This document shows positions 3,274 to 62,339 of a stretch of DNA of 64,000 nt, piece by piece (the first letter of the stretch is position 1; every line of letters starts with the position of its first letter). The notes beneath the pieces are model-generated. The model was given only the letters and a program-made list of their open reading frames with translations. It ran no database searches and was not told where the DNA came from. The position numbers and the translations under genes are program-made. Source of the stretch: a bacterium (GTDB lineage: Bacteria > Fidelibacterota > Marinisomatia > Marinisomatales > TCS55); NCBI GenBank assembly GCA_004321715.1, contig SGYN01000008.1, positions 3,940 through 67,939 of the forward strand, given 5' to 3'.

Positions 3274-3282
3274 ATAATTACC

Positions 3283-8614: not shown

Positions 8615-8714
8615 AAAGAATATGTAAAGTCAAGAATATCAAATTTAAAATTGTTATAAAAAGAACGTATATCCAAATATGAGATAAGCTTATAAATTAA
8701 AAATAATTTTAGTT

Positions 8715-9140: not shown

Positions 9141-9156
9141 AAACTTTTATTAATTA

Positions 9157-17758: not shown

Positions 17759-17998
17759 GGCAAATACGCCTCCTATTTTAAAATTACCGTCAAAAAAATA
17801 AAAAAAAACACCCACAGACAGTCCATAACTGTCTATGGATGCTCCTCTCCAAAGCAACATTAAAACAATATTTCATAGCTGTCAACAATTATTTTAAAAT
17901 TGTTTAGTTTTAAAATAAAATATTTATGTTAAACACCTAACATAGTTATGAGGAAAACCATTGTGATGCCAACTATGATAATGTAATTTTGCCGCCTC

Positions 17999-44456: not shown

Positions 44457-45626
44457 ATGAGGAAGATATTCTTATTGTCATTTTTCATTGCTGTAATTAA
44501 TGGTAAACCTCTGTTTAAAGAATATTCTATCTTTCCTATTCAAAATAAACATGTACATGGAAGTAGTATTATTGAACTACCAAATGGAGATCTTCTATCC
44601 TGCTGGTTCCATGGTTCTGGCGAAAGAAAAGCTAATGATGTACAAATTAAAGGAAGCCGATTAAAAAAAGGTAGTAATGAATGGGGTGATGTCTTTGATA
44701 TGGCAGATACTCCAAGCTTACCAGATTGCAATCCTGTTCTCTGGATTGATAAAAATGATAAATTATGGTTGTTCTGGATAGCCGTACGCGCAAATCAATG
44801 GGAAAATTCAATGTTGCGATATAGAACCTCTATAAATTATTTGAATAAAGAAATACCTACTTGGAATTGGCAAGATAATATCATTCTCCAACCAGGAGAA
44901 AAATTTAGGGAGACTATCGAACTTGCTTTTGAACAATATGTAGATGAACCAATGTGGGCTGAATATGCTCTACCATATTCAAAATTAATTATTGAAGCAT
45001 CCAAAGATCCTGAAAAGAGACAAAAAGGATGGATGACACGTATACATCCAATTTCATTAAAATCTGGTAGGGTGCTGTTGCCTCTTTATTCTGATGGATA
45101 CAATATATCTATTGTGGCAATAAGCGATGATAATGGAAAACATTGGAAAGCAAGTAATCCAATAGTAGGACTAGGACCCATCCAACCAAGTTTAGTTCAA
45201 AAGCAAAATGGTCATATTGTAGCATATATGAGAGATTCTGGTGATGATCCAAAGAGGATTTTAAAAAGTGTTTCCAAGGATAATGGTGAAACTTGGTCAT
45301 TTGCTATTGATACAAAAATACCAAACCCTAGCTCAAGTATTGAAGTATTACAATTAAAGAATGGCAACTGGATAATGGCATGTAATGATACGGAATCTAG
45401 TAGGAGTCAAATGGCTATTTTATTATCATTTAATGAGGGGAAGTCTTGGGAGGTAAAGAAATATATTGGAAAGTATGAATATAATAGTGGTATCACATTA
45501 GCATATCCTTCATTAATTCAATCATCAGATAGATTAATACATCTAACATATTCTTTAAAAGATAAAAAAGGTAAAACAATCCAACATGCTGTTTTTAATG
45601 AAGATTGGATAAAGAATAATAAGTAA
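44457..45626 (+). CDS. secreted BNR/Asp-box beta-propeller protein (exo-alpha-sialidase-like family)
   Basis: Signal peptide. HGSSIIELPNGDLLSCWFHGSGE. Asp-box repeats SDDNGKHW, SKDNGETW, SFNEGKSW. Confidence 0.7.
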   Translation: MRKIFLLSFFIAVINGKPLFKEYSIFPIQNKHVHGSSIIELPNGDLLSCWFHGSGERKANDVQIKGSRLKKGSNEWGDVFDMADTPSLPDCNPVLWIDKNDKLWLFWIAVRANQWENSMLRYRTSINYLNKEIPTWNWQDNIILQPGEKFRETIELAFEQYVDEPMWAEYALPYSKLIIEASKDPEKRQKGWMTRIHPISLKSGRVLLPLYSDGYNISIVAISDDNGKHWKASNPIVGLGPIQPSLVQKQNGHIVAYMRDSGDDPKRILKSVSKDNGETWSFAIDTKIPNPSSSIEVLQLKNGNWIMACNDTESSRSQMAILLSFNEGKSWEVKKYIGKYEYNSGITLAYPSLIQSSDRLIHLTYSLKDKKGKTIQHAVFNEDWIKNNK

Positions 45627-45686: not shown

Positions 45687-46640
45687 CTATCTAAGCAAAA
45701 GCATTTTCTTTCTTGCTACATAATCACCAGATCGTAATTCATAAAAATAAACACCGGATGCAACTGACTGCCCATTATAGTCAAGACCATTCCATTCTAT
45801 ACTGTGATGCCCTGGATTCAATGTGGAATTCATAAGTGTATTAATTTTCTTACCAAGAAGATTATAAACAATTAAAGTTGATTTTGCCCCATCAATCAAA
45901 TCAAAAGAGATTTTTGTTGAGGGATTAAATGGATTGGGGTAATTCTGAGATAAATTATATTGCAGAGGAATTCCATTTTCTGCCATAACACCAAGATTTG
46001 TTGTATTAAAAGAGACCATATTTGAAGTATCTGGAAAACTACAGGCAACGTTCAATATTTCTGGATCCATTGAAGTACCAGGAAGATCTAAAGAACCAAG
46101 ACCAAAAGATATAGTAGCCGGAAGAGAAGCAAGTCCATTAATAGCCTTATATGTAAGATGAAATAATGCTCCTTCCATTCCATCTCCAGCAGTATTAGCA
46201 CGTGAAGTACTATAAGCCATCACTCTAACATAACCATCCATCTCATTAGCCAATAGAGTCATGGATTCTATTACCGTTGAGGTTGTTGGATCATCTAAAC
46301 CTTCAAGCTTATCTCCTTTAACTACATTTCCACCTTGATCATAACTTAAAGCAGGTCCAGCATCATGATATATATCAATTTGAGCACCTCGAACAGGTTC
46401 ATTATCAAGAATTAATAAACTTAGAGTAAGCGTAGAGTCTTCTTCAATACCTGATAATTCTGCAGTAAAACCAACGCATCCGCACAATCCTGTTGCAATT
46501 AATTGATTAAATGTTGGATTCGGGGAACCATTTGGTAATAAAGTTCTAAGATCTGTATGATAAGAAGAATCAGATGGACAATCCAATGCATACAGATTTA
46601 CAGTTAAAAGTGTAATTATTGATAAAAGATATCTTTTCAT
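45687..46640 (-). CDS. T9SS-secreted protein, cohesin-like middle domain (function unknown)
   Basis: I prefer the start at ATG 46640 (MKRYLLSIITLLTVNLYA signal peptide); the ORF track extends to 46682. CTD QNYPNPFNPSTKISFDL...SGVYFYEL...KKMLLLR (45690-45947). Confidence 0.7.
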   Translation of the reverse strand: MKRYLLSIITLLTVNLYALDCPSDSSYHTDLRTLLPNGSPNPTFNQLIATGLCGCVGFTAELSGIEEDSTLTLSLLILDNEPVRGAQIDIYHDAGPALSYDQGGNVVKGDKLEGLDDPTTSTVIESMTLLANEMDGYVRVMAYSTSRANTAGDGMEGALFHLTYKAINGLASLPATISFGLGSLDLPGTSMDPEILNVACSFPDTSNMVSFNTTNLGVMAENGIPLQYNLSQNYPNPFNPSTKISFDLIDGAKSTLIVYNLLGKKINTLMNSTLNPGHHSIEWNGLDYNGQSVASGVYFYELRSGDYVARKKMLLLR

Positions 46641-46707
46641 ATTTTTTTCTATTTTCATATTGTTTGAATCTAAGCTATTCATGATTTAATCAAAAACCAA
46701 CAATTGT

Positions 46708-49700
46708 TTATTTCATTAAAATTAGTTTTTTGCTAAATAATTCTTCACCCATCTCAACAATCAAAAGGTATACGCCACTAGTGGCAATAGAATTATCTCT
46801 TAATGTACCATCCCATGAAATTTTATGTATTCCTTGATCAAAATTATCTTGAGCAATAATCGCAATCTCTCTACCTATTAAATCAAATACTTTTATACTC
46901 ACAAAACTCATTTTTGGAATGGATAATGTAAAACTTGTACGAGGATTAAACGGATTCGGATATACATTGGATAGCTGATATTTTTTAGGAATATTAATAT
47001 TATCATCTACTGATAACTCATTCATTAGAGTAATTTCAAATGAGTTCAAATCACTGATAGATACTTCACCGTTTACATTACTATAAACACCCCAATATAA
47101 TTCCTTATTATCAACATAACCGAATAAAGATAATAAGGTATCATATGCTAACACTGTGGTGACTTCATTCTGCATATTAAATGTAAATATCGGGCGAATA
47201 AATTCAGGATCATCAAGTATGAAAAAAGTATTTATTCCTTCAAGATCTGAGCTATTCCAAGAAAAACTTATATTATCATCTGATGACGTTAGGGTATCTG
47301 CATATCCCGCAGCAGGTAATAACAGTGTTGGCACATCAGGATATTCTACATCAGATACCAAGTAGTTTAACACACTGTAAATATAATCTTTTTCACTGAG
47401 AAATGTTGAATTTGGAGGAGACACTGCATCCATATTAAAAGAAGAAAGAATAACACGATAATCAGGAGATGAATAACGCATTACAGCCCCATGAGATTCA
47501 TCTCCATTATAATAAAAAGAAAGACTTGCTCTTGGATCACCAAAAGTTGATAATGAATCAATTCCAACACTGCCAAGTGATAAAAATAACTTATTATCTG
47601 AATTTACACCAATGGGATCTCCTTCAACACCTCGTAATATTCCCCCCGTACGGAAACCGGCATAGCGCATTTCTAAATAATTATTTAATAATTCACTATC
47701 TGCTAATTCTTCACCTAGGTGACTACCAGAAAGAAAAAGGTTTTTTCCTGAATCTAGATATTCCATAATTACATTTTTTTCAACTGCTGATAATCCATTG
47801 CCATCTGCTGATCCAGTATTCCAAATCACTATATCTCGTATATCCAAATTTAGATCATCCAAGGGTGTTGAAGTCCTATCTAGAATCTCAAAACTTACAT
47901 TTAATGAATCCATTCCTTCTATGAAAACATCTTCAGTATTATCACCATTATCATCATCTACAAGAAGAATTGGAGGAATACCTATATTAATACTCCACTC
48001 CTCTGTAATCGATTCATTTCCATCAAAAGTAAGTGTGATATCAAAACTTGCAACACCTAGATCAACATTTTCACTGATATCAATTATAAAAGGATCAGCC
48101 GTATTATCTGATTGTTCATTAGTTGCAACCGTTCCAAACTGAGTGGTCGCATCTGAAATAGTAATGCCAGAATGATTTGTACTAATTTCTCCCAAAACGG
48201 AAGAAAGGTTATTCCCATAGTTTGCAACAGTGACAATAAGTGAAATTGTTTCTCCTGGATCAGGATATGCATTATCTCCTGAGACATTAAATTCAATATC
48301 GTCTAATAAAAGTAAATTCTCAATGGACATCAGCGTAAGTATATAATTGGCATTGGCACCGCTTGTGCTAGTAACTATAGGGTTGATAGTTGCAGAATTA
48401 TAAGAAGTCCAATTATTTAATACAGCAAATCCATCAGCATTAATATCAACTGGTATTTCAAAACCATCGTCTAACGTTCCTTGGTGCGTAAATACCTTTA
48501 ATTTCCAATTATAATTTGAATCACCATCAAACTGAATTAACAAATTATCCTGTGAACCAGAGCCTCTATTGATTTTCACATAATTAACACCCATATCATC
48601 TGGTAATTTATTTGATGGTGGTGTATAATTAACTAGAGCACCAGTTGCCGTACGCGTAATGGCTACAGGTGATATATTGCTAGCTTCTTCAAATTCACCT
48701 TCATAATAATTCCCATGGGATCTTGATCCAGTAAAATGACGCCAAGCCGAAAATTTAGTAAACTCATCAACAAAATTAGATCCATTATTTATAAAATAAT
48801 TATTGATAGCTGAAATCGTCCCACTAATTGGTGTTTCCCAAATATTTTTAACAGCACTATCACCAAAATTTTCATGAATATAAAGATTCCATATAGTAGA
48901 ACCATATTGATACAACCCACCTGATTCAAAGTAGTCTAAGCTCCGATACGGCTCATTTTGAAATGCTTGATCATATCCCTCATAGCCATTTAATTCATCC
49001 CAAACTATTTCCTCAGCCCATTGAGAAGAACATTCCCTATACCAAGAACCGCTAGGTCCAGGGTCTCCATCACAGCCAGTGTACGCATGCTGAACCAAAT
49101 GATGAAGTTCATGGGAAGTTGTAAGCTTGTTTTGGCTATCACTTAAATTTTTACTCATATAAATTCTATGATAACTACTTCCAGGAACATATCCATAAGT
49201 ACCTGATTGATATTCTATAGTAACTAAAAACATACTATTACTAGTACAGGTTAATGGGTTGATCCAACCTAAGTCAATATATACAGCTAAAGCATCTTCA
49301 ATATACTGGCCCATGTTTTCGACAAAGTCAGGATGACCACTATTATCGTTATCCTGCGCATTACTACCTGTTAGACCATCTTCACCCGTTAATTGATAGT
49401 TAAGCTGCACGTTCCCTTCAGGAGTAAAATATGATACTCTATCATTTGATCTTTCATCAATATCATTATTAATGTTATCTAATTTGATTTGTAGGTCACC
49501 AGGAAGTTGATCATAGTATTCTTGCGCATCATCAATAATTCCTAGGCCACAAGGAATATAATCTGGTTCTTCAAATTGATAGCGGGCAGGTAAAGATTCA
49601 GGAATTAATAATGTCCGAGCTTTTAATTCCACTGCTTTAACATCAGTTAAAAAACCATCATGCAGATCTTTATTAATAAGTAAAAAAGGATTATTAATAG

Positions 49701-49758
49701 CACTTAGTATATTTTGACTAAATAATAGAATAATAAATATTGTTGATATTCTTTTCAT
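46708..49758 (-). CDS. T9SS-secreted putative zinc metalloprotease (HExxH) with additional beta-rich and LLVDDD-type domains
   Basis: Signal peptide. TSHELHHLVQH at codons 214-224 (HELHHLVQH, codons 216-224 = 49087-49113). PPILLVDDDNGDNTEDVF module. CTD SNVYPNPFNPRTSF...SGVYLLIV...KKLILMK (46711-46971). Confidence 0.75.
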   Translation of the reverse strand: MKRISTIFIILLFSQNILSAINNPFLLINKDLHDGFLTDVKAVELKARTLLIPESLPARYQFEEPDYIPCGLGIIDDAQEYYDQLPGDLQIKLDNINNDIDERSNDRVSYFTPEGNVQLNYQLTGEDGLTGSNAQDNDNSGHPDFVENMGQYIEDALAVYIDLGWINPLTCTSNSMFLVTIEYQSGTYGYVPGSSYHRIYMSKNLSDSQNKLTTSHELHHLVQHAYTGCDGDPGPSGSWYRECSSQWAEEIVWDELNGYEGYDQAFQNEPYRSLDYFESGGLYQYGSTIWNLYIHENFGDSAVKNIWETPISGTISAINNYFINNGSNFVDEFTKFSAWRHFTGSRSHGNYYEGEFEEASNISPVAITRTATGALVNYTPPSNKLPDDMGVNYVKINRGSGSQDNLLIQFDGDSNYNWKLKVFTHQGTLDDGFEIPVDINADGFAVLNNWTSYNSATINPIVTSTSGANANYILTLMSIENLLLLDDIEFNVSGDNAYPDPGETISLIVTVANYGNNLSSVLGEISTNHSGITISDATTQFGTVATNEQSDNTADPFIIDISENVDLGVASFDITLTFDGNESITEEWSINIGIPPILLVDDDNGDNTEDVFIEGMDSLNVSFEILDRTSTPLDDLNLDIRDIVIWNTGSADGNGLSAVEKNVIMEYLDSGKNLFLSGSHLGEELADSELLNNYLEMRYAGFRTGGILRGVEGDPIGVNSDNKLFLSLGSVGIDSLSTFGDPRASLSFYYNGDESHGAVMRYSSPDYRVILSSFNMDAVSPPNSTFLSEKDYIYSVLNYLVSDVEYPDVPTLLLPAAGYADTLTSSDDNISFSWNSSDLEGINTFFILDDPEFIRPIFTFNMQNEVTTVLAYDTLLSLFGYVDNKELYWGVYSNVNGEVSISDLNSFEITLMNELSVDDNINIPKKYQLSNVYPNPFNPRTSFTLSIPKMSFVSIKVFDLIGREIAIIAQDNFDQGIHKISWDGTLRDNSIATSGVYLLIVEMGEELFSKKLILMK

Positions 49759-49851
49759 ATGAATGGCTCTTTGTAATAATTCCTCTTATTAATTTATACG
49801 TTCTTCAATTAATAATTACTCACCCGTAATTATTATAGAATAAATATATAA

Positions 49852-52455
49852 TTATTTCATTAAGACCATTTTATCTGAGGCGCGATACAAATTCTTTCCA
49901 GAATTCAAATCATTCGCAATTACTTCATAAAAGTAAATACCTGATGGGACTTGATTTCCTGAGAAATGTTTTCCATCCCAAGAAAAGCTATGGATACCAG
50001 CTGAATATTCTTTATTTCCTAAACGGTTAATTTCTCTACCAAGAATATCACTAATCACAATAGTAAGGTCCGCACGAACAGGTATTTCAATACGAATTTT
50101 CGTATCAGGATTAAATGGATTAGGATAATTTCCCATTAAGGAAAATTCTTTTGGCAGTAATTGCTCGATTGTAGATAATGCTCCCGTTACAACGGTAAGC
50201 GTACGAGTATCAGATTCAATAGATTCCAATCCATCAGATGCAACTACCTTCCACGTACCAGTAAGAGATTGATATTCGCCCAACATTTCGGCGACTTCTG
50301 CAGCTGATAAACTAACAGATATACCATCGGTTGCTGGAACATCAAGCATTGCTAAATCACCATCAAGCACAATTTTATATCCAATTAGGTCTCCATCTGG
50401 GTCAGAGACACTTCCTCCAAACAAAAATGTTAATTGATCAGTGGAGCTTAAATCAACGGTTTCACCATCTTGAGGAGTTGCTTGTGATATGGATCCTTCT
50501 GGCCCACCCAAGCCCATCAACCAGTCTACTGAATTAGATAATAATGTAGTAAAATCCTGTGCTGACTCAATAGGAAATGAGAAATATACTGTTTTAAATG
50601 GAGCATCTGCACCCATACCATTATATCTTGAACCGGTTTTATTAAAAGATTGATCTCCAACAAAAACGTATTCTGCAAGATCGACACTCATAAAGTCTCC
50701 CCAGTTAGTCCATCCAACTAATTCATAATCTAATGGACCATAGGCATTATCTTCCCATGTGGTAGTAATTGGATCATTATTCTCTCCATAATGATTTAAA
50801 TCACCACTACCACCATTGGCTCCATCTCCATCATTATCGGGGTCATTCCAATAGTAAGATAGTCCAAGATAGTCATATGCAAAATCTCCTTCAGAGAAGC
50901 TTCCTTCAGATGCTAAATCTGTTTTCCAAAAATAATCCATATCAGAATATAGTAAGCGACCTCCTCGATCTAGAAAATCACCAAAACCATGGACATCCTC
51001 ACCAGTTGATGGCATCGCACCTCCAGCCCATCCATGTTTGACAATTAATTCAAAATTAGAGTGATTAATCACGTCATAGTCAACACCGCCATGATCATTT
51101 ACATTCCAAACATAATAACCAGTTGATCCCAATAATGGATTTAAACCTGTGGCAGAAGTATAAATAGATCCCCACGTACCACCGAGACTGTCTCTTGTCC
51201 CATCCTGTAATACTAGAACTTTCTGTGATGGACTTGGAGAAGATACGCGAACAAAAGAACGGAGGCTACTAGAGCTCGATCTTCCTGTTACATCTGTAGC
51301 GCGAACATAAAAATTTACTGTATCACCAACATCCATAGATACGTCAGCTAAAAACCTTCCTTCAACTTCATCATCTTGAGTCATTGCATATTGTTGTGTA
51401 TACGGATTTGCACCAACTGGTGCAATAGTTACATTTAAGGTACATGCAAAAGCATCACCATCAAGGTCTACAACATCTGCCCAAACCTGTTTTTCCTCAG
51501 CCCAGGTATCGCTGAAATCAGGTAACTGTTCAACAAAAGGAGGTACTGCCTCATACTGTACGACCACTTGAGCTATATGATGATAAGGAAACTCTCCATT
51601 CCAGATACCATACCATGCGCCACCTTCTGGCGCAATAGAATGTAAGGTAGAGCGACATGACCAATTATCTGTAGGATCCACTGATCCATCTTGCCAAATC
51701 GTTGCAATATTATCTACTCCTGCAGTAGAAGCCATATTATATCCTACATATACATATAACATATCATCAGGGACACCAAGAGAATCAGAAGTGACATTAA
51801 TACCTAAACCATCGAGGGTCCATGTTGGAAAGTCAAAAACATTCCAACCATTTGTAGCAGCTGCCCATGGATCCCATTGACCTTCAGCATTGAAATGATT
51901 ATCTGGAGCACTATTAGAAAATACAGTTGGAATTGTATAAGGCATCAACAGATCAATCGTACTTGGAAGTGTTCCATCATATGTATTTGCCATACTTGGG
52001 TACTGACCAAGCCATAGCCCTTCCTCATTCTGTTGATAAGCAGGACCATAGATCCAAACATCTACGGGAGCATAATCATTGGCTACATTTCCATCTGGAT
52101 CTATAACTCTTGTCATCACATGATATTGATTAATAATGCCAGCTGTTAATAAATGAACTCTTGTTACGACGGAATCGTCACCAGTTGTCTGATAGCCAGA
52201 CATAAAATCCCCATAATCTTCCACATAACTAGGATTAGTATAATAGGATATTGTATCCGTAATTGTTCGTTCCCCATCGCGACCAATACTTACACCTAGG
52301 CGGTGATTCATACCACATGAACATGATTTTATTTCAGCTCTTTTACTTAATAATTTTTGACCGCTAGATCTACTACTTTCCTTAGCAATCAAAATTGGCT
52401 GGGTGATTAAGATTATTACAAAAACTAATTTTACTATTTTATTATACATAGTCAT
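49852..52455 (-). CDS. T9SS-secreted large surface protein, function unknown
   Basis: Signal peptide. Asp/Gly/Trp/Tyr-rich. VLVLQDGTRDS module resembling the LLVDDD module of the next gene. CTD GNYPNPFNPDTKIRIEI...SGIYFYEV...DKMVLMK (49855-50133). Confidence 0.75.
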   Translation of the reverse strand: MTMYNKIVKLVFVIILITQPILIAKESSRSSGQKLLSKRAEIKSCSCGMNHRLGVSIGRDGERTITDTISYYTNPSYVEDYGDFMSGYQTTGDDSVVTRVHLLTAGIINQYHVMTRVIDPDGNVANDYAPVDVWIYGPAYQQNEEGLWLGQYPSMANTYDGTLPSTIDLLMPYTIPTVFSNSAPDNHFNAEGQWDPWAAATNGWNVFDFPTWTLDGLGINVTSDSLGVPDDMLYVYVGYNMASTAGVDNIATIWQDGSVDPTDNWSCRSTLHSIAPEGGAWYGIWNGEFPYHHIAQVVVQYEAVPPFVEQLPDFSDTWAEEKQVWADVVDLDGDAFACTLNVTIAPVGANPYTQQYAMTQDDEVEGRFLADVSMDVGDTVNFYVRATDVTGRSSSSSLRSFVRVSSPSPSQKVLVLQDGTRDSLGGTWGSIYTSATGLNPLLGSTGYYVWNVNDHGGVDYDVINHSNFELIVKHGWAGGAMPSTGEDVHGFGDFLDRGGRLLYSDMDYFWKTDLASEGSFSEGDFAYDYLGLSYYWNDPDNDGDGANGGSGDLNHYGENNDPITTTWEDNAYGPLDYELVGWTNWGDFMSVDLAEYVFVGDQSFNKTGSRYNGMGADAPFKTVYFSFPIESAQDFTTLLSNSVDWLMGLGGPEGSISQATPQDGETVDLSSTDQLTFLFGGSVSDPDGDLIGYKIVLDGDLAMLDVPATDGISVSLSAAEVAEMLGEYQSLTGTWKVVASDGLESIESDTRTLTVVTGALSTIEQLLPKEFSLMGNYPNPFNPDTKIRIEIPVRADLTIVISDILGREINRLGNKEYSAGIHSFSWDGKHFSGNQVPSGIYFYEVIANDLNSGKNLYRASDKMVLMK

Positions 52456-52480
52456 TCTCTCTTATCTTTTATATTATAAG

Positions 52481-53521
52481 TTAAAACTCTATCGTCAATT
52501 CAAATGAATGAATTGGTGCAAAATATTTATGGTCTTCAAATGAATAAGAAACCCAACTTTTCGTATTAAATACAGGACGAAGATTAAGACCAAATCCACC
52601 AGTAAATCCACGCATATTACCATTTAATTCTATTTCTGATGCTTTATTATCGAACATACCATTTAAATTACCATGTCCAATAACAAAATACATTAATTCT
52701 CCAAAATTATATTCTAAACCAAATGATAAAAATTCAGCTTGATCTGCAATGTTGTGAATAGCTAAACTAGGAATTAATTGATCACTTGCTCTTATTGGTA
52801 TAGATAATGACGAACCCAAATCAAAACTAATTGGTAATGAATAATTTTCTGAAGTCACTTCGATCCTAACATCTTCCTCTTCAAAAACATTGTCACTTAG
52901 TTTTATTGTTTGTTGAAGATTCTCTCCTTGATATTTTAAGTCACCACCAAAATTCTTTATCGAAAAACCAATGGTCATATCGTAGAACAAGCCAACTTTA
53001 TATATTGCACCCATATCGAAAGCTATACCACTTGCAGTTAACTTGTCTATGTTCTGTATCACATATTTAATTGTTCCGCCACCACTAAACTTATCAGTCA
53101 TGCTTCGCGCAAAGGATACAAATCCTGCAAAATCATTTGCAGTAAATGTTCTTCCAGTTCCAAGGGGTTGCAATTCAGTAGTCTCTTCTATATCACCAGA
53201 AAGTAAACCTAATAGACCCATAGATACTGTCCCAAAAGAGGGAACATTATAAGTGAAAGACATATAATCAAAACTCATCCCTACAAAATAATTTGAATGA
53301 TGGATAACAAAATTAGATCCAGTTAAAGTTGCAGTAGTCGCAGGATTATAGCTTAAAGCATCAATTAAACCGGGTCTAGCAACCATTGTACCAGCATTTG
53401 CAGCTCCCCTGGTTGTTGTGTTAATCTGCAAAAATTTTGCTCCAGCACTTCCCTGCCCTCCAATAAGGATATTATTGATTAGGAATAAGATAATGATACT
53501 ATGATGAAATATACTCTTCAT
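52481..53521 (-). CDS. PorV/PorQ-family outer-membrane beta-barrel (T9SS cargo shuttle-like)
   Basis: Signal peptide, then GSAGAKFLQINTTTRGAANAGTMVARPGLIDALSYNPATTATL, which follows my remembered PorV/PorQ N-terminal pattern (FL.I...AR..AMGGA......A...NPA.LA). Alternating beta-strand pattern. C-terminal ...ELTIEF with terminal Phe. Confidence 0.65.
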   Translation of the reverse strand: MKSIFHHSIIILFLINNILIGGQGSAGAKFLQINTTTRGAANAGTMVARPGLIDALSYNPATTATLTGSNFVIHHSNYFVGMSFDYMSFTYNVPSFGTVSMGLLGLLSGDIEETTELQPLGTGRTFTANDFAGFVSFARSMTDKFSGGGTIKYVIQNIDKLTASGIAFDMGAIYKVGLFYDMTIGFSIKNFGGDLKYQGENLQQTIKLSDNVFEEEDVRIEVTSENYSLPISFDLGSSLSIPIRASDQLIPSLAIHNIADQAEFLSFGLEYNFGELMYFVIGHGNLNGMFDNKASEIELNGNMRGFTGGFGLNLRPVFNTKSWVSYSFEDHKYFAPIHSFELTIEF

Positions 53522-53523
53522 TA

Positions 53524-56500
53524 TTAAGGGCCTAACACTATTGCAATTTTACCTTCTTTATACACCGTTTTACCCAACAACTCTCCTTCTAGTTGATAAA
53601 GATATAACCCGCTGGCAACTTTCAAGCCTTCATAATTTCTTAGATCCCAAGAAAGAGATCCTTCTTCATCATATACTTCATTATTACCAACAATCCCATC
53701 CTTGACTAATGTAGTAATCCATTCACCTGCGACATTAAAGATTCTAATTGTACAAGAAGCAGGCAAATGACGAAAATCTATATGTTGATTGAAACGGTTC
53801 TGATCCCACAGGGCTCGAACAATGTATGGGTTCGGAACTACTTTTACATCGCTTAATGAAGCGCGGCTTATTGTGTCAAGCATATTCACAGTATAGAAAG
53901 TGAATTTATCATTTACTGTTAAAGGTCTGGATGTTTTCATAAATAGCGTATCCGGAGTTTCTGTATTTGGTCCATCTGGATACGATAAAGCCTCCCCACC
54001 AACTATATTTTCATCAAATGGTAAAAATGTTACTTCAAAACTAGTAGGATTAAGCGCTGTATTTTTTTGTGCCTGCTCCGTTAATATTCGAAAAGCATTT
54101 TTAGTGTTTGCACCATTATCTTCATCTAAAACCCACCATAAATATTTTTTTTCTTGAGCTCTTCTAATATTATAAGACCATACCTTTTGATCCAAAGTCA
54201 TATTATATATACTAATTGGGGTACGTTGAGTAAAGAATGAATCATCTCCATTATTATTATATCGGAAGAATCCTACTGCAGAAGTATCTGATATAAGTGA
54301 GTCAGAATTATCATAGAATGTTATGTAATAATCATAGGGTTCTAAACTTTGAGATCGCAAATCAAATTTAAATATTTCTGCTACATTTGTGCCCAAATTC
54401 CAATAAACAGAGTCAATACTTAATGAAGGGTTTGTTACCATAAAAATGAAACCATGATTATTTGTAATTACTTCTTCATTTAAAATACTAGTAGATGATA
54501 AACCATAAACTGTTTCTGGAGATAATTTACCAGTAAATATATTGTTGGATGCATCTTCAAGGATTAATGGGTTATAGGCATACTGCGCAGAAGCACTTCC
54601 AGCTGTTAATGTCGAAGACATCTCAGATGATATATAAATAACTCCATCACCGTAGTTTAAAACACCTTTTACCGTATCCCCATCAGACACACCTTGAATA
54701 ATTCCATTTCCTAAATCCTCTAGTTGTACATCATTAATGGACAAAGTAAAGGAACCAGGGATGACAACGCCCAATGGAAGACTTCCATCAATTTCTGATG
54801 TAGAACCTGCAATACTCAATGTATCGAAATAGTCTACCCCAGGGACAAAATCATTTAATGGTTCAATGCTACCAACATCTACAAGAATAGAATCGATTAA
54901 AATTCCATAATCTGCCGATTCATTAGTTGATTGCAATGGATCACTTTGAAAAAAGTGAATTTCATAATTATGACCAGTTAAATTTTCATAACTGGTTATT
55001 GCTTTTAGAAATTGTCCTGTTGATGGTCCAGAATGCACATAATTAGAAATTTTTGGTGCTCCTTCTAGTTCTAGTGCCATATGCTGCGGGCGAACCATTA
55101 TAATGTTCTGATATAGGCTACTTTCTAAAGGAGGAATATCTGCTACTGGTACACCTTGATCATAGGAAACAACAGAATAAAAATAATTCATTCCATCAAT
55201 CAAACCTTCATCTAAAAATGTGTAGGATAAACCATTTTGATTTCCAATTTCTTGTGCGGCAAAAGTTTTTATGATAAAGATATCGCCGTCTCTTGGGCTT
55301 AATGACTGTTGAGATATTTCAATATCACTAATTACACCATCTAAATCTAGATCCTTATATTCTCCATTAGATAGTCTGACAAAAAATCCATCAAGGTATA
55401 TAAAATACCCATCTCTATATACATCAATATCTGATAATGTTCCACTAAGAGCTTGCATCTCAGTACTGTCATATTCAGCATATGTACGGAAACCCTCCCC
55501 CATGGTCATTGAAGCAATATTTGGTAGAACAGATTGCTTATTCGTTACATTATAAATTACCATTTTTAAGGTATCCAAAGTAACGCCATCAATATCTATT
55601 TGATGACTCATAAGTTCAATTGTGTATTCTGCTTCAATAAATCGATCTTCAATTGCCTCTACTGACGGATTTGCACTGATATCACCAGTACCTAAAGGGC
55701 CAATAAACTTTGATATAGCATTTGAAGTCCCTTTTGAATACTCAACAATACCCGACCAGTCTGATGAATCTCCATCGATATCATAATCAGCAAGTAAGGT
55801 CCAATCATTTTGAAGACCAGATAGGGATCGATATATTCGATAACCAGCAAAATCTGCTAATCCAGTAAATGGATCAATTACCGTTTCAGGAAAGTTATCC
55901 CATGATAAATAAATAGCCTCGTGTGCTGGTTGAACACTGAGTTTTGGCGATGGTGGCGCTTCAGCTCCAATATATCCTGCATTAAACTTGTCAATTGCTG
56001 ATTGTGTATTCTTTTTTAAATCTGATAAAGATGATCCTGCTACCAAAGCAACAGTTACACTAATAGATTTTCCAGGATCTAATTGAATTACGGGTCCACT
56101 GGTAGCTAATTGTCTTACATCTTGTGGTTCTTCGAATACTTCAAAGCTATCAACCATTGATAATTGAAAATACTTGATATGATCCATTTCATCATCATCC
56201 ACATCTCCTGGATGACCTTCACTTTGACCAAGATCTGAACGAATCCATGTCTGAAAACCAGTTAAGCCTATTTGCCAATCATTTATTTCATTACCTGCAG
56301 GAGGAACACCCTGGGAAGGATCACCTATAGAATCTACAGGGGTTTCTACAAAAACTGATCCTAAATAACCGGCGGGAGCAATCCACCCTGATTCTTCTGA
56401 GTCCGAATCATAAGAATACCCTAAGTTTAATGATCGATCAAAACCTATTAAATCATCATCAGCATAACCCACATCATTATCCATAAAATATCCTACATAA

Positions 56501-57459
56501 ATACTATCCAAAGGAAAATCATTCATGTTCGTAATTTTATAATTGATATACAAATAATCATCTGTGGTCCATGAATAGGTTCGTTGTTCAACTTTGATGC
56601 CTAACCCCCTCGTATCATATCCACGATTCCACAGAAATTTTCCATCTCGTTCATCTAAATAATCACCAAATACAGAATAGGTATCTTCATCGGAAACAAT
56701 ATCACCTCTGATATTTCCATTTTCATCCTCACGAAATGGATCCAGCAATAGTAAACTACTATCTAAACCAAGGGAACTTGTTGCTAAAAATTGTTTTCTA
56801 CGTTTATTTATATTTTCAAAATCAAGACGGTATAATGTATCTGAATTAGGAAAATAATAATCCCCAGATTGCGGTACAAAAAAAGACCATATATCTTGAT
56901 ATTCTTCAACTGCCTTGTTTTTTTGACCAAATAAAAAGTCTCCTTTATTCTCTTCCATTTTTCCATCGGAGACCGCAGAAATAAGCTGATTTGATTGCCA
57001 AAGTTTTGATATAGAGCTCATTTCTGAATAATATGCGGTTGTAGCAACACGAACATTTTCAATTCTTTTATCCCCAATAGTAATCGATCTATCTTCTGGT
57101 GTATTAAAATTTTCAGATTTACCACCAATCCACAAGCCTGCACCCCATGTATAAAATTGATTTGTACCGCTTGGAAATTCGCCTGTCCTCCCATTATAAG
57201 CCCCATAACCAACAGGAAATTCACCGTTATATCCACCCCAGCCAGGAGGAGGCTCAAATACTCCACTTTGACCCGTATTGCTAATAGTATATTGACTAAA
57301 AAAACCCGATCCGACCCAAGATAATGTAGGATCTGGTACCTGGTCAAACGTATTTGATCTGTACATTACTTGATCAGGAATCTTTTTACTAGAAGTAATA
57401 TTATTTTTACTATGGATTGTAGACAAAAGAATGATAATTGTAATAAAAAATCTAAACAT
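53524..57459 (-). CDS. giant (1311 aa) T9SS-tailed surface protein, function unknown, encoded directly after the TonB-dependent receptor
   Basis: Signal peptide. Fn3-like segment PPSPKLSVQPAHEAIYLSWDNF...FAGYRIYRS. Divergent CTD VVPNPYIVRALWD...CTIRIFNVAGEWI...LSWDLRNYEGLKVASGLYLYQL...GKIAIVLGP (53527-53841). Confidence 0.75.
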   Translation of the reverse strand: MFRFFITIIILLSTIHSKNNITSSKKIPDQVMYRSNTFDQVPDPTLSWVGSGFFSQYTISNTGQSGVFEPPPGWGGYNGEFPVGYGAYNGRTGEFPSGTNQFYTWGAGLWIGGKSENFNTPEDRSITIGDKRIENVRVATTAYYSEMSSISKLWQSNQLISAVSDGKMEENKGDFLFGQKNKAVEEYQDIWSFFVPQSGDYYFPNSDTLYRLDFENINKRRKQFLATSSLGLDSSLLLLDPFREDENGNIRGDIVSDEDTYSVFGDYLDERDGKFLWNRGYDTRGLGIKVEQRTYSWTTDDYLYINYKITNMNDFPLDSIYVGYFMDNDVGYADDDLIGFDRSLNLGYSYDSDSEESGWIAPAGYLGSVFVETPVDSIGDPSQGVPPAGNEINDWQIGLTGFQTWIRSDLGQSEGHPGDVDDDEMDHIKYFQLSMVDSFEVFEEPQDVRQLATSGPVIQLDPGKSISVTVALVAGSSLSDLKKNTQSAIDKFNAGYIGAEAPPSPKLSVQPAHEAIYLSWDNFPETVIDPFTGLADFAGYRIYRSLSGLQNDWTLLADYDIDGDSSDWSGIVEYSKGTSNAISKFIGPLGTGDISANPSVEAIEDRFIEAEYTIELMSHQIDIDGVTLDTLKMVIYNVTNKQSVLPNIASMTMGEGFRTYAEYDSTEMQALSGTLSDIDVYRDGYFIYLDGFFVRLSNGEYKDLDLDGVISDIEISQQSLSPRDGDIFIIKTFAAQEIGNQNGLSYTFLDEGLIDGMNYFYSVVSYDQGVPVADIPPLESSLYQNIIMVRPQHMALELEGAPKISNYVHSGPSTGQFLKAITSYENLTGHNYEIHFFQSDPLQSTNESADYGILIDSILVDVGSIEPLNDFVPGVDYFDTLSIAGSTSEIDGSLPLGVVIPGSFTLSINDVQLEDLGNGIIQGVSDGDTVKGVLNYGDGVIYISSEMSSTLTAGSASAQYAYNPLILEDASNNIFTGKLSPETVYGLSSTSILNEEVITNNHGFIFMVTNPSLSIDSVYWNLGTNVAEIFKFDLRSQSLEPYDYYITFYDNSDSLISDTSAVGFFRYNNNGDDSFFTQRTPISIYNMTLDQKVWSYNIRRAQEKKYLWWVLDEDNGANTKNAFRILTEQAQKNTALNPTSFEVTFLPFDENIVGGEALSYPDGPNTETPDTLFMKTSRPLTVNDKFTFYTVNMLDTISRASLSDVKVVPNPYIVRALWDQNRFNQHIDFRHLPASCTIRIFNVAGEWITTLVKDGIVGNNEVYDEEGSLSWDLRNYEGLKVASGLYLYQLEGELLGKTVYKEGKIAIVLGP

Positions 57460-57477
57460 ATCTATAAGATTATAATG

Positions 57478-60400
57478 TTAAAACCATAGATTAATCCCAA
57501 AGTGAAAATACCTTGCAGAAGAATAATTATAGGGGTTGTTCAATAAACTCCTCCATAACTGCAAGTGAGTATCATAAGCTTCTTCCGCTGATGAAATCAT
57601 ATTTCCACTTATTGGATTAGTCTGTCCAATATATTGAAGATATCTACTTCGTTCAAACACAGGTGGCCGACCATTCGTATCAGGCTCTCCACTAAAAGAA
57701 TAAACATAAGTTGTATTAATCCAGTTAAATACGTTCCTTATATCAAGATACATACTAAAATTATTTAAATATTTTTCTACACGCATATCAAGGGATTTAT
57801 ATCCAGGCATTCTTTTCGAACCAATCTCTTTTGCTTTTCCATAAATATCCGTCGGTGTATAAGGTGCACCAGTAGCTAAATTACCCTGAAAATTGAAATT
57901 CCAATCACCAGTGAGCCTGCCAAAAAAAGTATTACTGTTTCTTGCAGCTAAATAATAGTTCAAATTAAACTTAACGGAGTGGGTAATATCAAACTCCATT
58001 GGATATTCTTTAACAGGTAAAGGTCTGTCAGAGTCAAAAATGTATAAATAGTAATACTCCCTATTACTTGACCCTGTTCCCTTTGCTGACATCCATGTAT
58101 AATCAATGTCCCCGGTCAAATTACTAAAATTGTTCAATTTTAATTTGAATTCAATTCCTTTTATTTTGGCATAATCTTCCATTTCCATTACTGTAACACT
58201 TGCTACTTGACCATCAATTAAAACAGGGTAGGTTCTATTTGTTGCAAGATTCATTTGATCTTTGAAAAAGGAGATAATTTCAAGACCTAATGTTTGTGAA
58301 AACTTATGAGCAAGTCCAAACTGGTATTGTATTGTTTCTTCCGGAGTAATATTTGGATTTCCAACTAATGGTAACCCGCTTGAAATATCAGCATATACAT
58401 TTTGATACATTTCTGAATACTGAGGAAATTGTACGAAATAACCATAATTAGTATAAATTGCAGTTTTATCAGAAGCATTAAAATTGATTCCTAACCTGGG
58501 GCTCAGTTTAACTTTTACCTTAGCAGGCTGCCTTTCAACAACACCATCATCAACTAATAAACTAGTTTTTAATGATTCTACATTAGGGTCAAAATAGTCC
58601 CATCTTAATCCACTCATTAAAATAAAATCATTATTTTCATATGTATTTTCTGCATAAGCAGATCCTGACAATGGTTCATAGTTATACGAATCAAAATAGG
58701 GGTTCTGGTTTGCAAATTGAATGTCTCGGTAATCCATTGTGCTGGATGTAGTTTTTAATCCAAATTTGGCTGCATTTCGCATACTCCACTGTGTATTTAA
58801 TTGAAATTCTATGCTAGAATGCGTACTTACAGACTTATGACTTCTTGGGCGCCCTGGGCCAAAAGTATAAACATTAAAAATATCACGATCGTAATAATAT
58901 CCATTATGCATATTGCCTAGATATGCCCATAAATCATTACCACGTTGAAAATCATCATCTCCGAAAAGATAACTTGCATATTCTTTTTCATCAAACTCAT
59001 CAAAATGAGCTGTTGAATCTGTAGAATTATAATAGTTTGATTCTTCATCTAAAAAAGCAGGTATATACCATGATCCAGCCTCGTGCCATCTTTGATTATA
59101 GGCCACAACTTTTTCTGATTCTGATGACCACATACCAGTAGATAAATCAAATTGATTCCCTTGTGTATAATAGTAATAGTAAAAAGCTTGCTCTTCTAGG
59201 GACAAGCTACTGAGTTGCGCTGGATTGTTATTAGTACCACCGGATAAATCATCAATTACAAAATAGTTATCCGATATAAGTGGCAATCCATTAGCATCTG
59301 TCAACTCTTTCCAAATACGAGTTTTTGGATCATACCAACCATTGTTTTCCGCATAATTGACCCAGTCTAATCTAGTAGATAAATAATTAAAATCTTTATA
59401 TGATGTATTTTCGCCAGATCCGTAATTATTATAATGTTCGAAAGTAGAAATCATTAATCTCCAGGCGGTGTTTTTTCCTAATGTATTTTGAATTTGCAGG
59501 CTTAAACGACGACTACCTTCTAATGTTTTATAATAATCTCTTAACCAGTCTCCTTTGCTAATACTATGACTATAACTTTCAGTAGCTTTATCTTCAAAAG
59601 AAGCGGAAAGAATTGCATTAAAACCTGAAGTTGGTGGCGTAAATGTCATTTTAAAAGTACCCATCGGATGGGTATATGAACTATGAGGTAGCTTTATGGA
59701 TCTAGGACTAACAATATCGCTCCCAGCATATGATCCAGATAAATAAAAAGATAAATATTTCTTTAATCCTGGGAATGGACCGCCAAATTGAAGATTATAC
59801 TTTCCATAGTTATTATTATAAATCGAATTATTATTTGAAACTTGATCTGTTTCAAAAATTAGATTTCCTGAATAGTTCTGCTTCGATCCTGACTTTGTTA
59901 CCACAGTTACAATACCCGACATAGCTTCACCAAACTCCGCTGAAAACCCACCTTTTGATATCGTAAGAACATCAATTGATTCTTTATCAATTTGTACTCC
60001 CTGCGAACGATCAACAGGGTCATTCGTTAAGATGCCATCAACATAAAAAGCAACTTCACCACTACGTCCTCCTCTCATATGAATTCCTCGAGATCTACCT
60101 GCTTCAGTCTTCACAACACCACCTGCATTTGCAATTACATCCGTAAAGTTTGATACAGGCATTTTATATAATTGATCCCCTGAATATTTCACTTGAGTAA
60201 CTACAGATTTTATATCTACTGTATTCTCCATGCTCTCAGCAACCACATTCACCTCTTGACCTTCAATTGCTTCTACACTCATTGAACATAAAATTTCTGT
60301 TGTAGCACCAGGTGAAACTTCAATATTTTGAATTATGGTTGAAGCATATCCCATATAGGAGACTTTAATACTATAAAAACCACTCATTATATTAGGGATA

Positions 60401-60597
60401 ACAAATTCTCCATTTTCATTAGTCATAGTGCCTCTGCCACTTTCGACAGGCAATAAAAGAATATTAGCTCCAGCTAGAGGATCTTTAGTCATCCCATCAA
60501 TAGCCTTACCTCTAATTTTACCAGAAACCCTATCGGATTGAGCATCTAATACTGAAATAATTATTAAAGGGAGTAAAAAGTAAGTTTTAAATTTCAT
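57478..60597 (-). CDS. large TonB-dependent receptor-like outer-membrane protein with CarboxypepD_reg-like N-domain
   Basis: Signal peptide. ISGKIRGKAIDGMTKDPLAGANILLL (CarboxypepD_reg-like). Plug motifs GIHMRGGRSGEVAFYVDGI and SKGGFSAEFGEAMSGIVTVVTKSGS. C-terminal ...HFGINLWF. Confidence 0.85.
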   Translation of the reverse strand: MKFKTYFLLPLIIISVLDAQSDRVSGKIRGKAIDGMTKDPLAGANILLLPVESGRGTMTNENGEFVIPNIMSGFYSIKVSYMGYASTIIQNIEVSPGATTEILCSMSVEAIEGQEVNVVAESMENTVDIKSVVTQVKYSGDQLYKMPVSNFTDVIANAGGVVKTEAGRSRGIHMRGGRSGEVAFYVDGILTNDPVDRSQGVQIDKESIDVLTISKGGFSAEFGEAMSGIVTVVTKSGSKQNYSGNLIFETDQVSNNNSIYNNNYGKYNLQFGGPFPGLKKYLSFYLSGSYAGSDIVSPRSIKLPHSSYTHPMGTFKMTFTPPTSGFNAILSASFEDKATESYSHSISKGDWLRDYYKTLEGSRRLSLQIQNTLGKNTAWRLMISTFEHYNNYGSGENTSYKDFNYLSTRLDWVNYAENNGWYDPKTRIWKELTDANGLPLISDNYFVIDDLSGGTNNNPAQLSSLSLEEQAFYYYYYTQGNQFDLSTGMWSSESEKVVAYNQRWHEAGSWYIPAFLDEESNYYNSTDSTAHFDEFDEKEYASYLFGDDDFQRGNDLWAYLGNMHNGYYYDRDIFNVYTFGPGRPRSHKSVSTHSSIEFQLNTQWSMRNAAKFGLKTTSSTMDYRDIQFANQNPYFDSYNYEPLSGSAYAENTYENNDFILMSGLRWDYFDPNVESLKTSLLVDDGVVERQPAKVKVKLSPRLGINFNASDKTAIYTNYGYFVQFPQYSEMYQNVYADISSGLPLVGNPNITPEETIQYQFGLAHKFSQTLGLEIISFFKDQMNLATNRTYPVLIDGQVASVTVMEMEDYAKIKGIEFKLKLNNFSNLTGDIDYTWMSAKGTGSSNREYYYLYIFDSDRPLPVKEYPMEFDITHSVKFNLNYYLAARNSNTFFGRLTGDWNFNFQGNLATGAPYTPTDIYGKAKEIGSKRMPGYKSLDMRVEKYLNNFSMYLDIRNVFNWINTTYVYSFSGEPDTNGRPPVFERSRYLQYIGQTNPISGNMISSAEEAYDTHLQLWRSLLNNPYNYSSARYFHFGINLWF

Positions 60598-60627: not shown

Positions 60628-61737
60628 TTAAGCAGATTTTCTTCTAACATGATATAAAGGATTTGAACCATCTGTTATCACTTTTTTGGTTATGGTAATC
60701 TTATCAATAGAATCCATCTCCGGTATTTGATACATAATATCCATCATTGCTTCTTCCATAACCGCGCGTAGGGCCCTAGCGCCGGCATTACGTTCCATAG
60801 ATCGTGATATAATTTCATCTAATGCATCTTTTCTGAACTCTAGTTTAATTCCTTCCATCCTAAAAAGCTTTTTGTATTGTTTAATTAAGGCATTCTTTGG
60901 TTCAATAAGAACTTTATATAATGCTTTTTCATCTAACTTATTTAAACTGGTAATAATAGGTAGTCTTCCAATAAGCTCTGGAATGAATCCATATTCAATT
61001 AAATCCTCTGATTTCAAAAAGTTTAAAGTATTCTTTGAATTATTAATGTCATTATTATTCTTTTTTGTAAACCCTATCTCAGATTTTCCTTCTCTTCTTA
61101 AGATAATATCTAATAAACCATCAAAGGATCCACCACAAATGAATAAAATATTTTGAGTATCAACAGGAATTAGGCTTTGTTCTGGATGTTTTCTACCTCC
61201 CTTTGGTGGAACATTACTGATCGTTCCTTCCAAGATCTTTAAAAGAGCTTGTTGAACCCCTTCACCAGAAACATCGCGTGTTATACTCGCACTAGATGCT
61301 CGTTTACCAACTTTGTCAATCTCATCTATATATACTATTCCTTGTTCAGCTGCAGCTACATCATAGTTCGCTACTTGCAATAACCGAACCAAGACATTTT
61401 CAACATCTTCACCAACATATCCGGCTTCAGTAAGTGCAGTTGCATCTGCAATTGCAAATGGGACAGAAAGAAAATTAGCGAGAGTTTGTGCAATTAATGT
61501 TTTTCCTGTTCCTGTTGGACCAAGCATTAAAATATTACTTTTTTCAAGTTTTACACCATCATCTAAATCTTGGAAGATGATCCGCTTATAATGGTTATGA
61601 ACTGCAACAGCCATTGTTTTTTTTGCTCTATCCTGACCTACAACATGTTGATCAAGATAACTTTTTATTTCCGAAGGCCTTGGAAGTGCCCTGTGGCTTT
61701 TATTTTTAGGATTTTGTTTAGGAGATTTATTTGTCAT
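60628..61737 (-). CDS. clpX: ATP-dependent Clp protease ATP-binding subunit ClpX, lacking the N-terminal zinc-binding domain
   Basis: Walker [13 protein letters not shown], Walker B VYIDEIDK, pore loop [14 protein letters not shown]-like loop EIGF. 369 aa starting at ...[23 protein letters not shown]. No CxxC motifs. The start overlaps the clpP stop by 4 nt. Confidence 0.9.
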
Positions 61738-62339
61738 TTTTTTCTTGCTGTCAAAATTGTATCTATAATACCATATTTTTTTGCTTGATCAGCGCTCATA
61801 AAAAAGTTTCTATCTGTATCTTTTTCTATTTTTTTAATTGTTTGCTTTGTGCTCTTTGCTAAAATTGAATTCAATTTTTGTCGAAGTCTTAGTATTTCAT
61901 CAGCTTGTATTTTAATATCAGATGCCTGCCCTTCTGCTCCACCAAGCGGTTGATGTATCATTACTCTTGAGTTAGGCAAAGCAGATCTTTTACCTGGCGT
62001 ACCTCCAGCAAGTAAAACTGCAGCCATACTGGAAGCAGCACCCATGCAGATAGTAGCTACATTTGGTTTTATATAATTCATAGTATCAAAAATTCCTAAC
62101 CCAGATGAAACATATCCTCCTGGTGAATTAATATAAAGGAATATATCTTTATCAGAATTTTCTGCTTCAAGAAATAATAATTGAGCAATAATTAACGATG
62201 CAACAGTATCATCAATTGGCGTACCTAAAAATATAATTCTTTCTTTTAATAGTCTCGAATAAATATCATATGCGCGTTCGGTCCTGCCAGATTGCTCTAC
62301 AACCATTGGAACTAACTGGGCAATTTCACTTTTTGTCAT
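61734..62339 (-). CDS. clpP: ATP-dependent Clp protease proteolytic subunit
   Basis: [17 protein letters not shown] (catalytic Ser), VMIHQPLGG (His), 201 aa. Confidence 0.95.

Follow-up and report, generated by a model that had tools for sequence, protein, structure and literature searches.

In a 64,000-nucleotide stretch of contig SGYN01000008.1 (assembly GCA_004321715.1, positions 3,940 to 67,939), from a bacterium of the Fidelibacterota, six genes for envelope and secreted proteins lie in a row on the minus strand. We refer to this whole stretch as the window and count all positions from its first letter. The first three genes encode a TonB-dependent receptor (TBDR), a giant secreted protein and a barrel of the PorV/PorQ family, and we find that this triad, not the string of six, is the conserved functional unit. 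In gene order, the string consists of:

57478-60597, minus strand: TonB-dependent receptor, 1039 amino acids (aa)
53524-57459, minus strand: giant secreted protein, 1311 aa
52481-53521, minus strand: PorV/PorQ-family barrel, 346 aa
49852-52455, minus strand: type IX secretion system (T9SS) type A cargo, 867 aa
46708-49758, minus strand: putative HExxH metalloprotease with a T9SS type A C-terminal sorting domain (CTD), 1016 aa
45687-46682, minus strand: T9SS type A cargo, 331 aa, or 317 aa if the second plausible ATG is the start
45655-45633, minus strand: intrinsic-terminator-like hairpin at the end of the string, CCCTTTAT-CTAACAA-ATAAAGGG, followed by T8

The genes are taken from the listing of open reading frames (ORFs), which agrees with an earlier account made from the letters alone (hereafter the sequence-only reading) in the six minus-strand ORFs, in the gaps between them, 18, 2, 25, 93 and 25 (or 67) nt in gene order, and in the hairpin, which also serves a convergent plus-strand gene ending at 45626. 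That account had seen no SusD/RagB gene, glycoside hydrolase (GH) or regulator in the string, and searches of the six genes against Pfam and NCBIfam likewise detect none. The G+C content of the window is about 32%, and a promoter scan of the string was uninformative, returning fewer sites than shuffled controls.

A scan of one genome per species turned up no fewer than 595 stretches in which a relative is encoded. We fetched 78 loci (cited below by L numbers) and scored every ORF in them with hidden Markov models (HMMs) built from the window and four loci. Four distant homologues of the giant, each on its own contig, are all found in the order receptor, giant, barrel of about 330 aa. Among giants with enough flanking sequence, a TBDR lies directly upstream in 66 of 71 and a barrel directly downstream in 78 of 84, the median gaps being 17 nt between TBDR and giant and 14 nt between giant and barrel. 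Those that depart from this order are second giants that immediately follow a complete triad, together with a handful of orphan Bacteroidota giants. The order occurs in ten or more bacterial phyla; its carriers include Marinimicrobia, Calditrichota, Fermentibacteria, Eisenbacteria, WOR-3, Zixibacteria, GN15, Ignavibacteria/Kapaibacteria and Bacteroidota, the last with Flavobacteriales, Chitinophagaceae, Sphingobacteriaceae and Bacteroidales. Because it is seen in some 80 fetched loci, the arrangement is far beyond chance. Matrices of pairwise identity for each of the three families over 59 complete triads correlate with r = 0.93-0.95, a value that none of 500 permutations reached, and this co-divergence shows that the triad evolves as a unit, with linked inheritance contributing to the correlation. 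In two loci (L008 and L031) the whole triad is duplicated in tandem. The search in related genomes for a TBDR, a CTD protein of more than 1000 aa and a PorV-like protein, suggested by the sequence-only reading, thus uncovers a strongly conserved order. The same reading had taken all six genes for one system, which holds for the triad and fails for the remaining CTD proteins, as these vary between lineages. In L031, L048 and L082 an extra giant gene stands directly after a complete triad and has no receptor of its own.

The module is peculiar neither to this organism nor to SusD-poor lineages, since it extends over thousands of protein clusters, Bacteroidota included. The giant family alone, for which neither Pfam nor NCBIfam has a model, comprises 2055 clusters (50% identity) at E<=1e-30, and a Bacteroidota giant used as query gathers 6248 clusters (90% identity) at E<=1e-20.

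The receptor carries three Pfam domains, a CarbopepD_reg_2 extension, a plug and a barrel, each scoring above its cut-off:

60244-60516, minus strand: CarboxypepD_reg-like N-terminal extension (PF13715)
59914-60192, minus strand: plug domain (PF07715, 37.4 bits, cut-off 23.9)
57481-59043, minus strand: barrel domain (PF00593, 84.3 bits, cut-off 27)

It therefore has both the plug and the 22-strand-type barrel by which a TonB-dependent transporter (TBDT) is recognised, and its C-terminal residue is Phe, so that the identity proposed from the letters alone is confirmed. A profile of 35 triad receptors matches solved TBDTs, namely Cir (1.6e-28), PhuR, FepA and a SusC homologue (2.7e-17); it is only such family profiles that matched, as single-sequence searches of the window receptor, giant and barrel against PDB chains gave no match. 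The plug motifs RGGR, Y.VDG and TGG..A.YG are conserved in the receptor family. No match of the window receptor to the SusC/RagA model TIGR04056 was obtained at E<=0.01, and a relative in L026 reaches 61.6 bits, the cut-off being 368. When scored with the HMM of triad TBDRs, the other two TBDRs of the window reach 71 and 91 bits, compared with about 200-1657 bits for complete triad TBDRs in the fetched loci. Judged by these scores, the triad receptors are a distinct TBDR subfamily, specific to the context upstream of a giant.

The giant is the least familiar member of the triad. It has no Pfam match even at E<=5, and its homologues, the closest of them in Marinimicrobia/Neomarinimicrobiota (SAR406) metagenomes, are all labelled 'hypothetical'; some homologues of the Bacteroidota giants carry the NCBI name 'T9SS type A sorting domain-containing protein'. 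Three regions stand out:

55960-57342, minus strand: conserved N-terminal beta-supersandwich domain
56398-56487, minus strand: invariant acidic cluster FMDNDVG..DDLIGFD within the N-terminal domain
53527-53856, minus strand: CTD of a divergent T9SS subclass, pattern VVPNPY..LP.CTIRIF..WDL..ASGLYLY..GKIAIV

Further domains are FN3-like and beta-sandwich domains, ending in the CTD-like domain. AlphaFold2 models are all-beta and multi-domain, with a pLDDT of 83.7 for a 1059-aa homologue and 84.8 for the first 520 residues of the window giant. In Foldseek searches a full-length homologue of the giant retrieved PorZ (5m11) in first place at a template-modelling (TM) score of just 0.09-0.12, and the N-terminal domain of the window giant retrieved, at TM 0.25-0.34, only the N-terminal beta-supersandwich domains of enzymes from families GH94, GH116 and GH161, which are non-catalytic. 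We rejected the giant as a recognisable enzyme, as these matches have low TM scores and none is to a catalytic fold. It was also rejected as PorU or PorZ: there is no C25 peptidase or PorU match, and its similarity to PorZ is confined to the CTD. Adjacency of porU and porV is usual in Bacteroidota. The giant begins with a type I-like signal peptide that has no lipobox Cys, and a lipobox-like motif appears in 1 of 43 family members; because the predicted signal peptides are without a lipobox, the giants cannot be lipoproteins, and lipid anchoring in the manner of SusD is excluded on this evidence. In WOR-3 and relatives, six family members of about 1200 aa (P0071, P0075-P0077, P0081 and P0085) have a precomputed match to PF04865, an unexpected domain for a family of surface proteins, and one of these is named 'Baseplate protein J' in UniRef.

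All four non-barrel proteins had been read as ending in T9SS CTDs. For three of them this was verified by HMM, as described below; the C-terminus of the giant matches neither TIGR04183 nor PF18962. It weakly matches the C-terminal part of the PorZ model (NF052228; E 1.5e-5, 23.6 bits against a cut-off of 260). Profile-profile comparison gives a clearer answer, as 41 giant C-termini aligned by hhalign with 13 type A CTDs score a probability of 97.1% and an E-value of 5.5e-11. Given this match, the giant is predicted to end in a genuine T9SS CTD, homologous to the type A domains and forming a subclass of its own. Giants from Zixibacteria, Eisenbacteria, Ignavibacteria-type and Bacteroidota loci (L037, L041, L067, L024, L042, L040, L081, L078, L070 and L083 among them) extend beyond the CTD by about 12 residues with an aromatic end (...RPIDLN.F/Y or EKERLN.Y). 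This tail, which the window giant does not have, looks like an outer-membrane beta-signal or like one more strand.

The 346-aa protein had been taken for a PorV/PorQ-like barrel, and it does pass the cut-off of the family model NF033709 (128.2 bits, cut-off 90). It stays below the equivalog cut-offs for PorV (NF033710, 35.4 against 250), PorQ (NF033711, 80 against 220) and PorV2 (53.4 against 325). A profile of 37 such barrels matches the structure of Flavobacterium johnsoniae PorV (6h3i_F) at 1.1e-32 and then TodX and TbuX of the FadL family. By these profiles the protein is an outer-membrane barrel of the PorV/PorQ family and of the predicted 14-strand type, neither PorV nor PorQ proper. In PorZ and PorU the CTD is retained, and PorQ binds the former and PorV the latter (review PMC10202324), and there is experimental precedent for type B CTD cargo that depends on genetically linked PorP/SprF shuttle barrels (PMC12618676). 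Because the giant has its own CTD subclass and the other three proteins have ordinary type A CTDs, the PorV-like barrel most likely serves only the giant, as its cognate partner, and the 867-, 1016- and 331-aa proteins are probably handled by the general PorV. The role of cargo shuttle or anchor first assigned to this barrel is thus retained, as a proposal, for the giant and not for the other three.

The three proteins downstream of the triad all pass the cut-off of the type A sorting domain model TIGR04183 (23 bits), with 27.9 bits for the 867-aa, 32.1 for the 1016-aa and 34.3 for the 331-aa protein. Their features are:

49855-50127, minus strand: CTD of the 867-aa protein (TIGR04183)
49099-49113, minus strand: HELHH, an HExxH motif, residues 216-220 of the 1016-aa protein
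48649-49398, minus strand: MXAN_6640/DUF6055-like domain of the 1016-aa protein (NF045524)
46711-46965, minus strand: CTD of the 1016-aa protein (TIGR04183)
45690-45941, minus strand: CTD of the 331-aa protein (TIGR04183)

Outside the CTD, neither the 867-aa nor the 331-aa protein has a Pfam match. Homologues of the 867-aa protein directly follow the barrel in eight loci (L013, L010, L009, L017, L001, L003, L012 and L018), so that in the clade nearest the window this gene comes fourth in the locus. The HExxH motif noted earlier in the 1016-aa protein is present as HELHH. The protein matches the MXAN_6640 HExxH model NF045524 at E 5.6e-29 and 101.8 bits, below the cut-off of 140, and we regard it as a putative zinc metalloprotease. 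Its orthologues hold the same position in L013, L010 and L001, that of L001 having a DUF6055 domain above cut-off and that of L010 SusE domains. For the 331-aa protein, blastp against all ORFs of the fetched loci returned the protein itself alone. The three type A cargo proteins are probably accessory factors for capture or processing, and the HExxH protein gives a hint that the substrate is proteinaceous.

Outside Bacteroidota, the genes around the triad vary, and they frequently specify T9SS cargo bearing amylase, GH43, GHL10 or metalloprotease domains. Among 89 co-directional neighbours, proteins with T9SS tails are the commonest (22 of 89), followed by GH43, GH13/cyclomaltodextrinase/CBM20, GHL10, M10 peptidase and MacB/TolC. 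In the second Marinimicrobia paralogue (L021), a GH13 cyclomaltodextrinase and a peptidyl-prolyl isomerase precede the triad, and a CBM20 protein with CTD and a GH43 follow it; in L006 the triad is preceded by GH38 and a CBM9-CTD protein and followed by a LacI/GntR-type regulator, two GHL10 proteins and an SSF transporter. This enzyme context supports a role in polymer uptake. In Ignavibacteria-type loci, a GWxTD-domain protein lies directly after the barrel (L040 13493-14872, L062 14543-15973) and may be a lineage-specific fourth component. On an Eisenbacteria chromosome (L077 12827-14275), a reverse transcriptase gene (RVT_1, E 6.6e-42) right after the triad probably marks the insertion of a group II intron or a retron.

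The reading that we favour, at even confidence, is that the triad is a TonB-dependent uptake machine in which a T9SS-delivered giant, seated on a cognate PorQ-like barrel, replaces the SusD lipoprotein. The giant would be exported by Sec and then be carried across the outer membrane by the T9SS. The CTD of the giant would stay uncleaved and be held by the cognate barrel, as PorZ is on PorQ or type B cargo on PorP/SprF, thereby anchoring the giant beside or over the transporter. The N-terminal beta-supersandwich domain would capture the substrate and pass it to the TonB-energised barrel, so that the giant would do the job of the SusD or BtuG lipoproteins of Bacteroidota. Lineage-specific type A cargo encoded beside the triad would pre-process the substrate; in the window this cargo, the putative HExxH metalloprotease and two other proteins, suggests a protein or peptide-rich substrate, and in relatives it would be amylase/CBM20, GH43, GH38 or GHL10. 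In this model we infer the physical complex, the retention of the CTD, the direction of transport and the substrate. The sequence-only reading had proposed polymer capture on a TBDT; the enzyme context of relatives speaks for it, and uptake, assembly on the TBDR and substrate are the parts that we supply by inference. The broader formulation, namely that the triad is an ancient TonB-dependent machine of the Fibrobacteres-Chlorobi-Bacteroidetes (FCB) group, for which the T9SS supplies a surface subunit and whose giant is locked to the transporter via a PorQ-like barrel, we put forward tentatively, with somewhat more doubt than assurance.

Several observations weigh against the triad as an uptake machine. 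The fold matches of the giant's N-terminal domain are weak and concern non-catalytic domains of glycoside phosphorylases, leaving ligand binding a guess. The window receptor has a TonB-box-like QEVNVVAE, of which one V alone is conserved at >=60% across 59 TBDRs, and so the triad receptors have no clearly conserved TonB box. The HExxH protein scores below the cut-off of its family. In the window, the housekeeping genes tig, clpP and clpX end 30 nt ahead of the triad. In Bacteroidota, a scan of 100 neighbours in about 30 loci gave greA 32 times and HIT 29 times, and the 25 most frequent neighbour families include no enzymes or CTD cargo. The greA and HIT genes lie immediately 3' of the triad (for example L038 13505-14372 and L085 12215-13084), and ksgA and a 2-hydroxyacid dehydrogenase gene lie upstream of it in the two Bacteroidota loci checked; the cultured Owenweeksia hongkongensis has the triad alone beside greA/HIT, in the same layout as other Bacteroidota, with TBDR, giant and barrel at 3266-6988, 7001-11062 and 11082-12116 of L085. 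Because this greA-HIT synteny spans several orders, it suggests a single, vertically inherited and probably constitutive copy in Bacteroidota. Such a housekeeping context is easier to reconcile with a general function than with a substrate-specific one, and with no degradative enzymes nearby it weakens a reading modelled purely on polysaccharide utilization loci (PULs). Two small ORFs that follow Bacteroidota triads were considered as ExbD-like energisers and rejected, as they are GreA and the HIT protein.

Is the triad, then, an importer at all? It could instead be a general cell-surface or T9SS-associated module, serving attachment or sorting in the manner of PorQ-PorZ, envelope maintenance or adhesion, with the TBDR in a structural or signalling part. 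We consider this unlikely, though well within the plausible. The single-copy triads in a conserved, enzyme-free Bacteroidota neighbourhood and the Marinimicrobia triad that follows tig-clpP-clpX are what it would predict, and the giant has no recognisable relatives other than the PorZ and PorU CTDs, which belong to proteins of the attachment complex, no catalytic or known binding domain having been found in the giant. However, the TBDR retains a complete plug and barrel of the importer type, and the giant lies far below the PorZ equivalog cut-off (23.6 against 260 bits). Paralogous triads lie in PUL-like loci that also encode glycoside hydrolases, a regulator of sugar genes and a symporter of the inner membrane, and genomes that have several divergent copies, as seen with L008, L031 and the two Marinimicrobia types, are better explained by substrate specialisation than by one housekeeping machine.

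Another possibility is that the TBDR works outwards, exporting or inserting the giant or the neighbouring metalloprotease, with the PorV-like barrel receiving the exported protein. Oar of Myxococcus has an N-terminal CarboxypepD_reg-like domain, an extension that the triad TBDR also has. Oar is a precedent for a TBDT needed for protein secretion, being required for secretion of the PopC protease (PMC6434023); moreover, receptor and giant are strictly adjacent, and the family of the HExxH protein is named after a Myxococcus protein, MXAN_6640. We nevertheless regard export through the TBDR as improbable: it is unnecessary because the T9SS CTDs on the giant and on all other cargo already specify an export route, the barrel partner comes from a T9SS shuttle family, and the HExxH protein lies outside the conserved core. 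Least probable, and very much so, is synteny without joint function, an ordinary small-molecule receptor next to an unrelated adhesin/anchor pair, for although co-divergence is equally expected of linked genes inherited together, the adjacency has been kept across ten or more phyla despite complete turnover of flanking genes, with gaps of about 15 nt, duplications of the whole module and a TBDR subfamily that by HMM scores is specific to the triad context.

The surroundings of the string deserve a brief description. The tig, clpP and clpX genes (60628-63640, minus strand) lie directly upstream on the same strand, the distance from clpX to the receptor gene being the 30 nt mentioned above. The order clpP-clpX-triad is also found in another Neomarinimicrobiota metagenome-assembled genome (L013 3870-5605), and because it recurs there, co-transcription of the triad with these protein-quality-control genes is possible. 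At the other end, a run of genes for cadherin/Big_9 and BNR/sialidase-like proteins converges on the hairpin of the string, including:

38838-41771, plus strand: cadherin/Big_9 protein of 977 aa that has a T9SS type A tail
44457-45626, plus strand: BNR/sialidase-like protein

Elsewhere in the window, a third TBDR of 725 aa, with N-terminal extension, plug and barrel (25861-28038, plus strand), directly follows an amidohydrolase gene (23419-25167) and a gene for a regulator of the TetR family (25266-25859), both also on the plus strand. A cobalamin riboswitch (63 bits; 4751-4877, plus strand) lies upstream of a 331-aa ORF (4965-5960) that has no Pfam match and may encode a B12-related binding or uptake protein. 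The search for T9SS core genes (SprA/Sov, PorK/L/M/N, PorU) covered the 64-kb window and found none there.

Marinimicrobia (SAR406) and the other carrier phyla, abundant and for the most part uncultured, degrade organic matter in the sea and in sediments, and how they capture polymers without a classic SusD partner is the question on which the triad bears. If the uptake machine is real, TonB-dependent uptake would have a new blueprint in a conserved complex of TBDR, giant and barrel, and the T9SS would be put to a new use, building a transporter subunit, beyond the secretion of enzymes or adhesins. Two hallmarks of the superphylum, the T9SS and TBDT-based polymer uptake, would be tied together in one complex. 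The triad would serve as a marker for annotating uptake loci outside Bacteroidota, and thousands of 'hypothetical' giants, the conserved Bacteroidota housekeeping copy included, would gain a function. Members of the giant family are also present in cultured Flavobacteriales such as Owenweeksia hongkongensis and Phaeocystidibacter marisrubri, which makes the uptake hypothesis directly testable.

SAR406 genomes encode many proteins with Por tails (bioRxiv 10.1101/095471). They also encode many TBDTs, and TBDTs of Marinimicrobia are found in upper-ocean metaproteomes. We found no description of the triad in the literature searched, which was open-access only and left most subscription journals outside, so that one could have been missed; within that literature, the earlier impression that no characterised system contains the triad stands.

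Of the known systems, SusC/SusD and RagA/RagB come first to mind. Like them, the triad pairs a TBDT of about 1000 aa, with a CarboxypepD_reg-like extension, with the gene of a surface partner placed next to it, and in several lineages secreted enzymes, CBM20, CBM9 and SusE-domain proteins, a regulator and an inner-membrane transporter are encoded at the locus. Degradative enzymes are unevenly distributed, since the window has the putative, sub-cut-off HExxH protein alone, the relatives L021 and L006 have glycoside hydrolases, and Bacteroidota copies have none. The differences are substantial. No SusD/RagB-family protein belongs to the triad, and Pfam and NCBIfam searches find none among the five proteins encoded downstream of the receptor; the TBDR, having no TIGR04056 match, falls outside the SusC/RagA subfamily; and the third invariant gene, that of the PorV-family barrel, has no Sus counterpart. 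The same window does encode a SusC-like receptor of 1017 aa (14807-17860, minus strand) followed by a SusD_RagB-family protein of 413 aa (13556-14797, minus strand), which at 24.3 bits is just over the cut-off of 23.1. The giant is 3-4 times the size of this SusD-family protein, and it is predicted to be all-beta and a non-lipoprotein with a T9SS CTD. Because such a SusC/SusD-like pair is present in the same 64 kb, the triad is not simply a substitute for it.

The pairs PorQ-PorZ and PorV-PorU, and PorP/SprF with type B cargo, resemble the triad in that a FadL-like barrel of the PorV family adjoins a large protein with a distinct CTD subclass. The CTD of the giant is most like those of PorZ and PorU, which in their own systems are retained and bound to a barrel. 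Unlike PorQ-PorZ and PorV-PorU, the triad has a barrel that scores below the PorV and PorQ equivalogs and a giant that is neither PorZ nor a C25 sortase, and none of the known pairs of T9SS barrel and CTD protein is coupled to a TBDR. Oar resembles the triad receptor as a large TBDT associated with a secreted protease (PMC6434023), whereas the cargo proteins of the string already carry T9SS export signals and the protease is outside the conserved core. BtuB-BtuG of Bacteroides, in which a surface lipoprotein sits on a TBDT (mentioned in PMC12578637), offers a further parallel, an adjacent gene for a surface-exposed, beta-rich protein that caps or feeds the transporter. BtuG-type partners use the lipoprotein pathway, whereas the giant would be anchored through a T9SS CTD and a dedicated barrel. 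The triad is thus a real and strongly conserved arrangement, an apparently undescribed variant whose architecture brings together two kinds of system already known.

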